Assembly (NCBI GenBank): GCA_030917865.1
Contig: JAUPTX010000003.1
Coordinates: forward strand, 1-60,131
Reading direction: 5' to 3'
Source: Patescibacteria group bacterium
GTDB lineage: Bacteria > Patescibacteriota > Minisyncoccia > Phycocordibacterales > CSBR16-119
Length of the DNA stretch: 60,131 nt
Shown here piece by piece: positions 5,085 through 56,286 of the stretch. Every line of letters begins with the position of its first letter. Within the stretch, counting starts at the first letter, position 1. A model generated the notes under the pieces. It was not told the DNA's origin and did no database searches. It saw only the letters and a list, made by a program, of their open reading frames with translations. Made by a program: the position numbers and the translations under genes.

Positions 5085-5525
5085 TTACTTTTTTATAGGA
5101 TGAAGTTGCGCAGACACACCTATCGCCGCCGCGATAAAAACTATGTTTTTAATTATATACTGACCTTCGAGTGTTGGCACCAAAAACTTTTGCCAAGCTT
5201 CTTCTGGTAAATACACCAGTGGCCCAAAAGTTGTAATCATGTGAATCAAAAGTAGAGGCATCACTATTCTCTCTGCGCCTTTTATCAAAAACAATATTCC
5301 GATTAAACATTCAAAAAGTCCGAACAAAACAAGAAACGTAGAAAACTCCATAAAAGGAATCGTATTTTCAAAAAGTCTTTGCACTACTCCGTTCGCCGGT
5401 GAAAGTCCGATGACTTTCAAAAATCCAAACCAAAAGAAAACAACAAAAAATCCAAATCTCGCAGTCGGAACAAAAGCCCGTCTAAAGAAATTTATAAGTC
5501 CAAGATCTATTTTATTTAGAGACAT
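5085..5525 (-). CDS. DoxX/DUF417 family membrane protein
   Basis: FFWFGFLKVIGLSPA, GLFECLIGILFLI, TLEGQYIIKN motifs. Confidence 0.8.
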   Translation of the reverse strand: MSLNKIDLGLINFFRRAFVPTARFGFFVVFFWFGFLKVIGLSPANGVVQRLFENTIPFMEFSTFLVLFGLFECLIGILFLIKGAERIVMPLLLIHMITTFGPLVYLPEEAWQKFLVPTLEGQYIIKNIVFIAAAIGVSAQLHPIKK

Positions 5526-10683: not shown

Positions 10684-10762
10684 TGTTAGGATTTTCTACA
10701 GATTAACATAAAAAATTAAAAATGTCAAACAAAAAACACCTTCCGGTGTTTTTTGTGTTTTG

Positions 10763-10835
10763 TGGGCGATAAGGGACTTGAACCCCTGACCTTTCCAGTG
10801 TAAATGGATTGCTCTACCAACTGAGCTAATCGCCC
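10763..10835 (-). tRNA. tRNA-Val(TAC)
   Basis: Cloverleaf; loop TT-TAC-AC. Confidence 0.93.
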
Positions 10836-19525: not shown

Positions 19526-20236
19526 TTACAAGGTTTTTAATATAAAAAGCTCTAGATTGTTTTGAAGGTCTTCCCCTCTCCTGGCGTCATGATAGATTGA
19601 AACTAGATCCTGTAACGATTTTTTAAGTATTTTTTCTTCCCAAAACTTAGCATTTGCCATACTTTTCTTAAAAACAAACGGATTAAGGCCAGAATTCTTT
19701 ATTTCAGAATCTGCGCCTTTTTTATTTTTTGTTAAAATCAAAGCTTTTATTGCCCAAATCAATATATTCACCACATCTTCTGGCAAAACCCCTTCGTTTA
19801 TAGCTTTTTGATAGATAACCCAAGCATTTTTCTTGTCTTTTTTAGAAAATGCATCAGTAAAAGCAAATATATTAAACTTTTTTTCTTCTTTTTTAGGATC
19901 TTCAAAGATAAAAATGTTCTCAGAAACCTTTTCTATTGGCTTTATATCTGTCTTCTTTACACTAGATTCAATAAAAATAAATATATTTGTTGATTTTTCA
20001 AGGTTTTTAGTGTTTTTACAAACAAAATCCATATTTTCTTTGTTTTCGAGCACGGAGTTAAAAACAAAAACGCTTTTTTTACCAAAAAGGCTTGAAGATT
20101 CTAGGTTTTCAAGCAAATAATCAAAAGAAAAGGTGTTTTCTGGCACAAAAACAACTTCATATTCAAAAAAACGCTTGAGTGCTGACTCAAACGCCTTTTT
20201 TCTTTTTTCAAAATTTCCAGAAAATAAATAAATCAT
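19526..20236 (-). CDS. holA: DNA polymerase III delta subunit-like (HolA), shortened
   Basis: MIYLFSG, SSLFG, FNIFAFTDA, GLNPFVFKK, LELFIL. Confidence 0.7.
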   Translation of the reverse strand: MIYLFSGNFEKRKKAFESALKRFFEYEVVFVPENTFSFDYLLENLESSSLFGKKSVFVFNSVLENKENMDFVCKNTKNLEKSTNIFIFIESSVKKTDIKPIEKVSENIFIFEDPKKEEKKFNIFAFTDAFSKKDKKNAWVIYQKAINEGVLPEDVVNILIWAIKALILTKNKKGADSEIKNSGLNPFVFKKSMANAKFWEEKILKKSLQDLVSIYHDARRGEDLQNNLELFILKTL

Positions 20237-53825: not shown

Positions 53826-55928
53826 ATGAAACAAAAAGAATATTCAATAGAAATTGGTGGTAAGAAAATAACCGCTATTTTTTCTGATTTGGTAGATCAG
53901 GCAAATTCGGTGATTATGGCTTGTGGCGGAACACGCGTTCTTGTCACAGCTGTAATGTCAAAAGAAAAAAGCCAGACCGATTGGTTTAATCTAACTGTGG
54001 ACTATATTGAGAAGTTTTATGCTTCTGGAAAAATCGGCGGTGGAAGATTTATGAAAAGAGAAGGCAAGCCGACAGATGAGGCGATACTTGCTGGGCGTGT
54101 TATAGATAGAACACTTCGTCCGCTTTTTAACCAACAAATGGAATACGGTGTGCAAATAATCGCAACAGTTTTGGCGATGGACGAGTCTGTTGATCCGGGT
54201 ATTTTGGCGGTGAATGGTGCTTCACTAGCACTCGATATTTCAGAAATCCCTTGGGCTGGACCTGTTGGCGCAGTTAGACTTATTTCAAAAGACGGAGAAA
54301 ATCTTTGGAATCCTTCACAAAAGAAAAGAGTGGAAGGGTTTGACTACGATTTAATAGTTTGCGGAAAAGAAGGAAAGATAAATATGATTGAGGCTGTTGC
54401 TTATCAAACACCGGAAGATAAAATCGCTGCTGCTTTAGGTGAAGCAGAGGTGGAAATTAGCAAGCTTGAAAATTGGCAAAAAGAAATTCGTGCTGAAATC
54501 GGCAAAGAAAAGAAAGTGTTAGAGATAGGGTCTGTATCAAAAGAAGCACTTGATATTTTTGAAGAAAAAATCAGACCAAATTTTATGTCACATGCGATGA
54601 CAAAAACTCCTGGAAAAGAAAAAATGGAAGAACTTAAAAAGGTATGGAAAGATTTACTTAAAGAAAATTTTAGAGAGCAAGAAAGCTTTAAAAAAGAAGT
54701 TGATTATTTTGAAAGCGAGCTTGATCTTTTTATTCACAATCAAGCAATCGATGCGAATATGCGAGCTGACGGCCGAGCAATGGACGAGCTTCGTGAGATA
54801 TATTCAAAGGCAGGAGGATTTTCTGAGGTTCTTCACGGGTCTGGGATATTCTACAGAGGGCAGACTCATATTTTCACAGCGCTGACACTCGGTGGACCAG
54901 AAGATATGCAGATAATAGACGGCATGGAGGTGGAAGAAAACAAGCACTTTATGCATCATTACAATTTTCCACCTTTTTCTGTGGGAGAAATGGGCCGTGC
55001 CGGGTTTGTGAACAGAAGAGAAGTTGGGCACGGGGCCTTAGCTGAAAAAGCTTTAGAGGTTGTTTTGCCAAGTAAACTAGAATTCCCATACACAATACGT
55101 TTGGTTTCTGAGGCGATGGCATCAAATGGTTCGACATCACAGGCTTCTATTTGTGCATCCACTTTAGCGTTGATGGATGGTGGTGTACCGATCAAAGCTC
55201 CTGTTGCGGGTATTGCAATGGGTCTTATGTATAGAGATGAAAATAAATATAAAGTTCTAACTGATATTCAAGGTCCAGAAGATCATTATGGAGATATGGA
55301 CTTTAAAGTTGCTGGAACAAAGAATGGTTTGACCGCAATACAGCTCGATGTAAAAGTTGAAGGTGTTTCTCTTAAAATTTTAACAGAAGCTATGATGCAA
55401 AGTTTATCTGCAAGAAGCAAAATTTTAGAATCTATAACAAAAGAGATTGCAGAGCCAAGAAAAGATATTTCTCCTTTTGCGCCAAAAATCGTTGTGACGA
55501 AAATAAATCCAGATTCTATCGGCAAAGTTATCGGTTCTGGTGGAAAAACTATAAATGAAATCAGAGAAAAGACTAAAACAGAAATAACTATCGAAGATGA
55601 CGGAACTGTGTTTATAACAGGAAAAGACAAAGGGCCAGAAGAGGCAAAATTGATAATAGAAAATATGACTCACGAATGGAAGATAGGCGATGTTACGAGC
55701 GGAGAGGTGACAGGTATGAAAGAATTTGGAGCTTTTGTGAAGCTGACGAATGGACAAGAGGGAATGGTTCATATTTCTGAAATTGCACCTTTTAGAGTAG
55801 AGAAAGTTGAAGAGGTTTTGAAGATTGGACAGATTGTTCCTGTGAAAGTGATAAAAAATGAAATGGGAAAACTAGGGCTTTCTATTAAAGAAGCGGATAA
55901 AGATTTTGTTAAAAATCCAAAAGGTTAA
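53826..55928 (+). CDS. pnp: Polyribonucleotide nucleotidyltransferase (PNPase)
   Basis: GGRFMKREGKP, RVIDRTLRPLF, RREVGHG, SNGSTS, GDMDFKVAGT, KH and S1 domains. Confidence 0.98.
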   Translation: MKQKEYSIEIGGKKITAIFSDLVDQANSVIMACGGTRVLVTAVMSKEKSQTDWFNLTVDYIEKFYASGKIGGGRFMKREGKPTDEAILAGRVIDRTLRPLFNQQMEYGVQIIATVLAMDESVDPGILAVNGASLALDISEIPWAGPVGAVRLISKDGENLWNPSQKKRVEGFDYDLIVCGKEGKINMIEAVAYQTPEDKIAAALGEAEVEISKLENWQKEIRAEIGKEKKVLEIGSVSKEALDIFEEKIRPNFMSHAMTKTPGKEKMEELKKVWKDLLKENFREQESFKKEVDYFESELDLFIHNQAIDANMRADGRAMDELREIYSKAGGFSEVLHGSGIFYRGQTHIFTALTLGGPEDMQIIDGMEVEENKHFMHHYNFPPFSVGEMGRAGFVNRREVGHGALAEKALEVVLPSKLEFPYTIRLVSEAMASNGSTSQASICASTLALMDGGVPIKAPVAGIAMGLMYRDENKYKVLTDIQGPEDHYGDMDFKVAGTKNGLTAIQLDVKVEGVSLKILTEAMMQSLSARSKILESITKEIAEPRKDISPFAPKIVVTKINPDSIGKVIGSGGKTINEIREKTKTEITIEDDGTVFITGKDKGPEEAKLIIENMTHEWKIGDVTSGEVTGMKEFGAFVKLTNGQEGMVHISEIAPFRVEKVEEVLKIGQIVPVKVIKNEMGKLGLSIKEADKDFVKNPKG

Positions 55929-55946: not shown

Positions 55947-55979
55947 AAAAAGACCGGGCGCGAAGCGCCCGGCCTTTTT
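55947..55979. terminator. REP-like hairpin, pnp terminator
   Basis: aaaaagaccgggcgc-gaa-gcgcccggcctttttc. Confidence 0.75.
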
Positions 55980-56028
55980 CGTTGACAAAACACTAAATAT
56001 GAATAATATATATCGAGTATTGTTCTTT

Positions 56029-56101
56029 GCCGCGGTAGCTCAGTTGGTAGAGCACGTCACCGATAATGACGAGGTCGCAGGTTCGAGTCCTGCCCATGGC
56101 A
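56029..56101 (+). tRNA. tRNA-Ile(GAT) with C33 and one acceptor-stem mismatch
   Basis: Cloverleaf; CGTCA-CCGATAA-TGACG. Confidence 0.88.
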
Positions 56102-56122
56102 CGAAACCGCAAGGTTTCAAAA

Positions 56123-56217
56123 GGGGGTATAGCTCAGTTGGTTAGAGCGAGATATCTACAAGGGTCATAACTTTGTATGTTCTGTCTAGGTCGGTGGTTC
56201 AATTCCACCTACTCCCA
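56123..56217 (+). tRNA. Atypical 95-nt tRNA gene with a 21-nt insert in the anticodon arm (CAT in the apical loop, or an intron-containing TAC)
   Basis: Intact acceptor stem GGGGGTA/TACTCCC, D arm GCTC/GAGC, T arm GGTGG-TTCAATT-CCACC; AGATA/TGTCT closes a 28-nt segment. Confidence 0.7.
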
Positions 56218-56286
56218 CGAAGCCCGTCTGCACTGCAGGCGGGCTTTTTCATTTTGTTTTTTTGAAAGCGTGGTAAAATTATTTTA

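Follow-up and report, generated by a model that had tools for sequence, protein, structure and literature searches.

A tRNA-Ile(UAU)-Type Gene With a Hairpin-Lengthened Anticodon Arm Behind pnp in a Patescibacterial Genus Appears to Be a Non-Decoding Derivative Rather Than a Spliced tRNA

Introduction

Short inserts between positions 37 and 38 count as a hallmark of the transfer RNA (tRNA) genes of archaea and eukaryotes. An insert at this place was found in a bacterial tRNA-shaped gene, here named gene B, which occupies positions 56123–56218 (+ strand) of a 60,131-nucleotide (nt) stretch of contig JAUPTX010000003.1 from a Patescibacteria group bacterium (assembly GCA_030917865.1). The whole stretch is called the window; the genome to which it belongs (462 kb assembled, 76% complete) is G000, contigs bear C numbers, and the other genomes and loci compared are given by G and L codes. 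As in the protein-spliced introns of archaea and eukaryotes, the insert of gene B has about 20 nt, pairs with itself, follows position 37 and lengthens the anticodon arm. In contrast to those introns, it shows neither a bulge-helix-bulge nor a conserved 7-nt junction loop, its host is a bacterium, and neither the splicing endonuclease nor the ligase RtcB was found in the genus.

Three other kinds of described systems come close to this locus. Bacterial group I introns, such as that of the cyanobacterial tRNA-Leu(UAA), also interrupt a tRNA gene in its anticodon loop, but they exceed 200 nt and contain a catalytic core (P3–P9), whereas the insert of gene B has 21 nt and belongs to no Rfam intron family. 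REP, RPE and MITE-like hairpins can likewise be short hairpin-forming inserts within a structured-RNA gene; unlike them, the hairpin of gene B is single-copy, and no family of it was found in the genome or in viral collections. Finally, there are redundant or disrupted tRNA genes and non-decoding tRNA-like RNAs, such as the tRNA-Other of Bacillus cereus and the cell-wall tRNA-Gly of Staphylococcus. Like gene B, these are tRNA-shaped, come in addition to a complete canonical set, deviate in the anticodon region and are relaxed in their identity features, although none of them is known to have a 13-pair anticodon arm or to have exchanged its arms one by one between close relatives. Full-text searches of the literature returned no report of a short insert or a long anticodon arm in a tRNA of Patescibacteria.

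Results

On balance, gene B appears to be a spare gene of the tRNA-Ile(UAU) type that was taken out of decoding by a short hairpin in its anticodon loop, and not a spliced tRNA. It is the second gene of a two-gene operon, A then B, situated directly downstream of the polynucleotide phosphorylase gene pnp (53826–55928).

Gene B has a size of 95–96 nt and the layout GGGGGTA-TA-GCTC-AGTTGGTTA-GAGC-G-AGATA-[28 nt]-TGTCT-AGGTC-GGTGG-TTCAATT-CCACC-TACTCCC-A. The acceptor stem (GGGGGTA/TACTCCC) has 7 base pairs (bp) with a single wobble, G4.U69, and is accompanied by a D arm (GCTC/GAGC) and a T arm (GGTGG-TTCAATT-CCACC). The whole anticodon arm spans 56150–56187 (+ strand). Its outer stem of 5 bp, AGATA (56150–54) with TGTCT (56183–87), encloses not the canonical 7-nt loop but 28 nt, TC-TACAAGG-GTCATAA-CTTTGTA-TGTTC. 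Above this stem, the fold contains one additional pair (C56156-G56179), a 3-nt bulge on the 3′ side (UUC, 56180–82) and a 21-nt inner hairpin (56157–56177, + strand), in which the 7-bp stem TACAAGG (56157–63)/CTTTGTA (56171–77) carries the loop GUCAUAA (GTCATAA in the DNA, 56164–70). The arm thus reaches about 13 bp in total. The position and pairings that an earlier note on this DNA had read from the letters agree with sequence and fold, and the insert lies, as it had said, at the 37/38 position of the anticodon loop. ARAGORN, which the same note had proposed to run, detected gene B and called it “tRNA-???”. With the Rfam tRNA model (RF00005) its score was 54 bits, above the gathering score of 29, and the model treated 26 nt of the anticodon loop as inserted. 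The single-sequence fold was a cloverleaf with the long arm (−30.9 kcal/mol, z = −2.7).

Clues to the origin of gene B come from its body and from the letters that precede the hairpin. A covariance model of the long-arm gene, applied to 401 genomes of the order, found a full-length match only in G000 (112.8 bits), and every other match was an ordinary tRNA of at most 69 bits. Among the best of these ordinary tRNAs was the tRNA-Ile(TAT) of G253, GGGAGTATAGCTCAGTTGGTTAGAGC-ACAGAGCTTATACCTCTG-CGGTCGGTGGTTCGAGTCCACCTACTCCCA, whose acceptor, D and T arms agree with those of gene B at nearly all positions, with two T-loop differences counted by eye. A pattern of the 3′ half of gene B, from the variable loop to the acceptor strand, matched only gene B and this tRNA-Ile(TAT) in the 401 genomes. 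Furthermore, a remnant of the Ile(UAU) anticodon loop precedes the hairpin (56155–56160, + strand), reading TCTACA in the window, TCTTACA in the related locus L116 and T-CTTATA in L113. The last of these continues as ...AGACA-T-CTTATA / AGGCTCATAACTTTGTATG / CTCTG... and, judged by its letters, is the Ile(UAU) loop CTTATA/C cut after A37. Relative to CTTATA, the remnant CT-ACA of the window has lost one T and changed a T to C, and for this reason an apparent “TAC” is seen there. The remnant is nonfunctional in every lineage.

A second interruption at the same place was found on contig C9 (19640–19890) of the same genome, where a degenerate older copy of tRNA-Ile(TAT) is split as ...GCACAGAGCTTATA / 169-nt insert / CCTCTCTGG..., that is, ...CTTATA / insert / CCTCT.... 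The 169-nt insert carries an intact, working tRNA-Ile(TAT), and the 3′ half is repeated at 19845–19885. Both cases represent an insertion after A37 of a tRNA-Ile(UAU) in one genome, with a working copy retained. They differ in that the insert of gene B has only 21 nt, contains no tRNA, and has neither a second copy nor recognisable terminal repeats; unlike the nested tRNA of C9, it is old enough to be common to four lineages. Gene B offers a dated example, in four lineages, of a hot spot for insertion into the anticodon loop of tRNA-Ile(UAU) genes in these bacteria. Gene A, in turn, carries an anticodon arm typical of the tRNA-Ile(GAT) of the order (CGTCA-CTGATAA-TGACG). Since the body and remnant of gene B are of the Ile(UAU) type and the arm of gene A is of the Ile(GAT) type, the operon resembles, in its sequence, what was once a pair of tRNA genes for isoleucine.

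Neither gene would be needed for its former codons. A clean tRNA-Ile(GAT) is present on contig C17; tRNA-Ile(TAT), elongator tRNA-Met and initiator tRNA-Met are on C9; and tRNA-Val(TAC), with the loop TTTACAC, is at 10762–10835. As judged from these genes, AUA, AUC/AUU and GUA are read by canonical tRNA-Ile(UAU), tRNA-Ile(GAU) and tRNA-Val(UAC) encoded elsewhere in the genome. Across eight genomes of the genus, identity is 91–100% for the canonical Ile(GAT), Val(TAC), Ile(TAT), Met, Lys and Glu genes. Gene B does not keep to this rate, its body being 13–18% different from that of L113, and it gave no full-length BLAST match in 60 relatives.

The following course of events is proposed. A short hairpin of about 19–21 nt would have entered the Ile(UAU) anticodon loop after position 37. 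Gene B would be transcribed together with the redundant Ile(GAU)-type gene A from the conserved promoter, and the transcript would fold into a normal tRNA body that RNase P and the 3′-end enzymes should still recognise, the hairpin presumably not being spliced out. With an anticodon stem of about 13 pairs instead of 5, the tip loop would stand some 8 bp further from the elbow than either decoding or an anticodon-reading synthetase would allow. By tRNA geometry, such an arm can bridge neither the decoding and peptidyl-transferase centres nor both sites of an anticodon-reading synthetase. Because the modelled long arm is incompatible with this geometry, it is unlikely that the RNA of gene B decodes. 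Both operon genes would have kept the cloverleaf, while their anticodon arms were replaced or remodelled piecewise, gene B being one outcome of this process; the 37/38 site of the Ile(UAU) loop would be a hot spot, hit as well by the tRNA-carrying cassette on C9.

The long-arm form of gene B, with 96–98 nt, was found in three further lineages. Their arms read AGACA-TCTTACAAGG-GTCATAA-CTTTGTATGTTC-TGTCT in L116 (neighbouring protein identity 72%), AGACA-TCTTATAAGG-CTCATAA-CTTTGTATGCTC-TGTCT in L113 (93%) and AGACA-TTCTT-CAAGC-TTCATGC-GCTTG-TCTGACCC-TGTCT in L115 (83%). These three and G000 were aligned and tested for covariation. The loop letters TCAT (UCAU) are invariant in the four, the closing pair of the inner stem changes from G-C to C-G in L115, and other inner-stem changes are G.U to G-C and C-G to U.G. 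Pairing in the outer stem is complete (100%), the single change there being U.G to C-G, and 97% of all cells of the alignment pair. The shuffle control was not significant, since 68 of 500 shuffles reached the covariation observed with these four sequences; the covariation of the inner hairpin is therefore suggestive and no proof. Nevertheless, the inner 7-bp hairpin with its CAU loop, recognised in the earlier note, is a real element that was kept with compensating changes in three other lineages, and the search for homologs and for covariation that the note had recommended thus recovered both the insert and its compensating changes. The note had also considered that relatives might carry ordinary 74-nt homologs, leaving the insert unique. 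This was half borne out: distant homologs are of normal length but aberrant, and the closest ones share the insert. Gene B of G003, L118 and L124 has normal-length arms of differing sequence, and no clean empty site was seen among them.

Several sources for the hairpin were considered. No second copy with up to three mismatches was found in a tRNA context in the genome, and the nearest matches lie in unrelated AT-rich DNA. A repeated element of the REP or MITE kind was rejected, as no other copy of the hairpin was found in the genome, nor a family of it in the genome or viral contig collections. Exact-pattern scans for the long arm likewise gave no match in the genome and viral contig collections. 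A phage origin was also discarded: 50,697 phage records showed generic tRNA similarity only, and no viral contig had the long-arm pattern.

The operon itself has a conserved frame of promoter, leader, gene A, spacer hairpin, gene B and terminator, common across the genus. It follows the terminator of pnp (55954–55972, + strand; from a terminator scan), whose position is kept in relatives with compensating changes. The sigma-70-type promoter TTGACA-16-TAATAT (55982–56009, + strand) matches the consensus at 10 of 12 positions, and its TTGACA and the AATAT core of the −10 box (TAATAT in G000) are conserved in seven lineages. Gene A (56029–56102, + strand; ARAGORN, Rfam 66.7 bits) is tRNA-Ile(GAU)-like and duplicates the canonical Ile(GAT) on C17, with two oddities, namely C33, within the loop CCGATAA, and a C5/A68 mismatch in the acceptor stem; an unpaired A in its 3′ acceptor strand (positions 68–70) recurs in six lineages. 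Between the two genes, a spacer hairpin with a GNRA-type loop, GAAACC-GCAA-GGTTTC, was read from the sequence (56103–56118, + strand); it is GAAACC-GTAA-GGTTTC in L113 and L116, and a GAAA-loop hairpin takes the same place in G006 and G007. The intrinsic terminator of the operon (56219–56247, + strand) consists of a 13-pair stem and a T run, and is conserved with compensating changes in every lineage having gene B. The promoter common to gene B and the upstream tRNA-Ile(GAT)-like gene, and the terminator behind gene B, agree with the co-transcription and the terminator proposed in the earlier note.

No tRNA was found behind pnp in the other genera of the family, so that the operon is confined to this genus. 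It is absent in G004, L119, L125 and L126, and reduced to one gene in G005 and L052. Therefore, as far as these gene contents tell, the pair is an accessory, dispensable locus. A relationship to the Y-RNA-like YrlA RNAs linked to polynucleotide phosphorylase was examined and rejected. The Rfam score was 23.9 bits against a gathering score of 69, the match spans only the T arm of A and the D arm of B, as for any tandem tRNA pair, and no complementarity exists between the anticodon strands of A and B.

The anticodon arms of A and B are unusually variable between lineages, with loops of 6–9 nt or long arms. Gene A, compared over window 56029–56102, L116:81–155, L120:973–1047, L022 and L023, among others, has the arms CGTCA-CCGATAA-TGACG (G000), CTCCT-TTAAAAAC-GGGAG (L116, 8-nt loop), TGTCA-CTGATAA-TGACA (L113), TGTGT-ATCACAA-GCACA (G005), CTTGA-TTCGTAA-TCAGG (G001), TTGGA-TTGAAAA-TCCAA (L118), TCGGA-CTCAAG-TCCGA (G006 and G007, 6-nt loop) and CCTGG-CCGGTGG-TCAGG (L120), and in G003 its loop has 8–9 nt. 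The loops of gene B are TTTTTCCAC (9 nt) in G006, TTTCAGG (anticodon UCA) in G007, GTATAAG (7 nt, AUA anticodon) in G003, CTTTTAA in G001, ATGGCAT in L118 and GACATAA in L124, and long arms occur in G000, L113, L115, L116 and L117 (in L117, a second long arm). Across lineages, the loops of the pair include Thr-, Lys-, Phe-, Ala- and Val-like ones. The 7-nt loop UUUCAGG of the G007 gene B (L023:1153–1226, minus strand) is opal-suppressor-like by its UCA, and ARAGORN labels this gene tRNA-SeC.

These differences are unevenly distributed. Between G000 and L116, gene A differs at 0 of 56 body positions and at 11 of 21 positions of the anticodon arm, and the neighbouring gene at 226 of 949. Between G006 and L120, gene A shows 9 differences in the 17 arm positions and 1 in the 57 body positions, and between G006 and G007 the interior of gene B differs at 18 of 76 positions, with an identical acceptor stem. 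For G000 and L113, the operon segments are 4–26% different and the coding flanks 12–16%; since these divergences are similar, the general conservation of the operon is not exceptional. The arms might have been swapped by gene conversion from canonical tRNAs of the same genome, but those of gene A are, by eye, unlike the Thr, Val, Phe and Lys arms of the genus. A kissing interaction of the A loop with the B loop was discarded as well, as no consistent complementarity was found. The locus thus exposes an accessory two-gene tRNA-like operon in which the turnover of the arms is far above that of the surroundings and the cloverleaf is kept. It also calls for caution in annotation, as the ARAGORN label of these genes varies with the lineage among Val, Ile, Tyr, SeC and “???”.

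Discussion

Several observations weigh against gene B as a mere derivative that has left decoding. An intact promoter and terminator are unexpected for a dead gene in a genome of 0.5–0.7 Mb, and so are a fully paired cloverleaf and a covarying inner helix. The compensating G-C/C-G flip and the invariant UCAU occur in lineages whose neighbouring gene is 12–24% different. The stems of A and B are 93–100% paired in 12 lineages each, with two to six pair types at most variable positions. The changes are mosaic and concentrated in the anticodon arms at 5–10 times the local background, and this clustering, as seen in the aligned sequences, looks more like replacement or selection than decay. Finally, because the genome holds no second copy of the hairpin, its origin from a mobile element is conjectural. 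The retained stem pairing, for its part, fits selection for the fold and the repeated arrival of intact tRNA genes alike.

Because the locus has retained its promoter, terminator, cloverleaf and inner helix and its arms vary in a modular way, a smaller though appreciable share of the weight was given to a selected function outside decoding. According to this alternative, which we hold to be possible but doubtful, A and B would be working tRNA-shaped RNAs that no longer decode, the body serving for folding, processing or protein binding and the arm being a fast-changing specificity module, of which the long arm with the CAU loop is one variant. They could act as decoys or sponges for toxins that cut anticodon loops, or as partners of another tRNA-binding factor. 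The maintenance of the cloverleaf through many compensating changes, the conserved promoter, spacer hairpin and terminator, the confinement of replacement to the arms between close relatives, the covarying inner hairpin with its invariant UCAU, and the recurrent unpaired A of gene A in six lineages all agree with it, and pairs of a short-loop and a long-arm tRNA-like gene exist in other families too (G318 and G147). Nevertheless, at least four lineages do without the operon, which is thus dispensable, and no partner protein or target was found. The divergence of the operon between G000 and L113 (10–26% per segment) is about that of the neighbouring coding DNA, the covariation test with four sequences and 68 of 500 shuffles is weak, and repeated replacement by incoming tRNA genes would also leave intact stems. 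It is accordingly a tentative idea that the pnp-linked pair might be the first recognised representative of a class of bacterial tRNA-shaped RNAs outside translation whose anticodon arms are swapped or lengthened as modules. The swapping could be driven by conflict, for example if the RNAs were decoys for anticodon-cutting nucleases, or by a site-specific system that inserts and removes hairpins at 37/38. With either driver, the 21-nt hairpin, with UCAU conserved in its loop, would be a tip kept by selection for its function and no scar.

We judged it improbable that the insert represents a novel type of short tRNA intron in bacteria, whose excision by some unknown pathway would yield a working tRNA of 75 nt (Val-UAC in the window, Ile-UAU in L113). 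The insert does stand at the classical 37/38 position, it is common to four lineages with the body intact, and its removal would leave the loop TC-TAC-AC, near the TT-TAC-AC of tRNA-Val. The earlier note had drawn this comparison with the Val loop, and the similarity holds, with the correction that the spliced loop TCTACAC would carry C33 and not U33, which is near-universal in tRNA anticodon loops. The would-be anticodon is not constant either. In the four lineages the triplet is TAC, TAC, TAT and TTC, an extra T in L116 and L113 shifting the register by one base and TTC being that of L115. An identity as Val(UAC) with an intron, as the note had offered, was consequently abandoned: TAC is not conserved among the homologs, and the body and the remnant CTTATA lead to tRNA-Ile(UAU). 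Moreover, canonical Val(TAC) and Ile(TAT) genes are already present.

The machinery and the substrate shape for protein-type splicing were not found either. A search for the tRNA splicing endonuclease (PF01974) was negative in the eight genomes of the genus, its controls being positive in four archaea, and the RtcB ligase (PF01139) was absent from the same eight genomes, with positive controls in 10 of 14. A bulge-helix-bulge consists of two 3-nt bulges 4 bp apart. None was present in the folds, which show a single 3-nt bulge (56180–82) and, at the place expected for the second one, an uninterrupted 7-bp hairpin; the relaxed bulge-helix-bulge-like precursor imagined in the note is thus unsupported. 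Self-splicing fares no better, the insert being much too short for group I or group II introns and no Rfam intron match being obtained at E ≤ 1. A bacterial insert at 37/38 would be of consequence if it were spliced; the evidence speaks against splicing in this one, which guards against over-reading such calls in Patescibacteria.

Still less credible is a working long-arm tRNA that would use the CAU tip loop as a Met- or Ile2-type tRNA in some special translation step. Its appeal lies in the loop itself, because N-U-CAU-A-A is the Met/Ile2 loop (exactly CUCAUAA in L113), UCAU is invariant in the four lineages, and gene B of L124 has CAT in an arm of normal length. The inner loop GUCAUAA indeed has the CAU, the 7 nt and the U33 of an Ile2 loop, yet it is carried at the end of an arm of 13 bp. 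With about 8 pairs more than normal, such an arm cannot, by tRNA geometry, span the decoding and peptidyl-transferase centres, nor the anticodon and acceptor sites of methionyl-tRNA synthetase. Elongator and initiator tRNA-Met genes are present on C9, and the other homologs of gene B have unrelated loops. The Ile2 identity, also raised there, is at odds with the enzyme content. TilS converts C34 to lysidine in tRNA-Ile2(CAU); its model (TIGR02432) gave at best 20 bits in the genus against a cut-off of 93.6, and none of 61 genomes of the order had it, with positive controls responding. Thus, of the tilS, rtcB and endonuclease genes that the note had named, none was found in the eight genomes, nor tilS in the 61. 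A relic of tRNA-Ile2(CAU) left after the loss of TilS was rejected, since the enzyme is missing from all the sampled genomes of the order and its loss is therefore far older than the genus-specific operon. As a side observation, AUA is apparently read by tRNA-Ile(UAU) throughout the order, TilS being missing from all 61 genomes searched.

An assembly or sequencing artefact, for which no supporting evidence was found and which was raised solely for the oddness of the structure, can be dismissed: the 96-nt sequence is unchanged in seven independent assemblies (other samples, different runs, one JGI metagenome), one of them from a strain with 99.06% identity in 3.9 kb (37 differences in 3942 flanking positions), and three more lineages have homologous long-arm genes, so that the insert is real DNA. 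The strain of the window is present in the samples SRR24011143, -46, -47, -51 and -52, SRR35185575 and JGI 3300043411.

Additional Observations

A pattern scan of the 401 genomes of the order detected about 12 other tRNA-like genes with enlarged anticodon arms, and also broken copies of tRNA-Ile(GAT) that carry hairpins. The tRNA-like genes include two adjacent pairs, each with one 5–6-nt loop and one long anticodon arm (94–106 nt). In G147 (L101:89–297, G147:C24), a 16-pair arm stands next to a short-loop tRNA-like gene, and in G318 (L097:130–310, G318:C3) the tandem aberrant pair has encoded CCA ends. Another tRNA-like gene (L096:225–322; G053:C7, minus strand; 48 bits), found with the same sequence in G236:C12, lies between the 23S and 5S rRNA genes and has the stem TCTGAAT/ATTCAG around about 29 nt. 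Broken tRNA-Ile(GAT) copies were located beside an intact copy at L089:100–420 (G278:C5), L091 (G079:C9), G049:C1:12872 and G346:C24:63. In these, a 28–32-nt hairpin stands where the anticodon stem should have its 5′ strand, and its loop in G049 is CTCATAAAATCA.

The surroundings of the operon vary as well. A gene with its own promoter for a signal-peptide protein of 232–238 amino acids (L113:714–1418, L117:422–1120, L125:404–1120, L024, L033, L052) separates, as an insertion in several lineages, the tRNA-like operon or the pnp terminator from a conserved gene for a 313-amino-acid membrane protein, at what is a variable spot. The pnp gene of G004 (L033, G004:C1:27158–29270) has an in-frame TGA and TAG, for which a pseudogene or a sequencing error is possible.

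Elsewhere in G000, a well-formed tRNA-Ser with the encoded anticodon ACT (A34) was noticed on C9 (27974–28061), 220 nt from tRNA-Ser(GCT). On C6, just downstream of the intact tRNA-Leu(CAA) (5170–5252), there is a second, degenerate Leu(CAA)-like copy (about 5275–5365) with some 16 nt inserted in its D loop.

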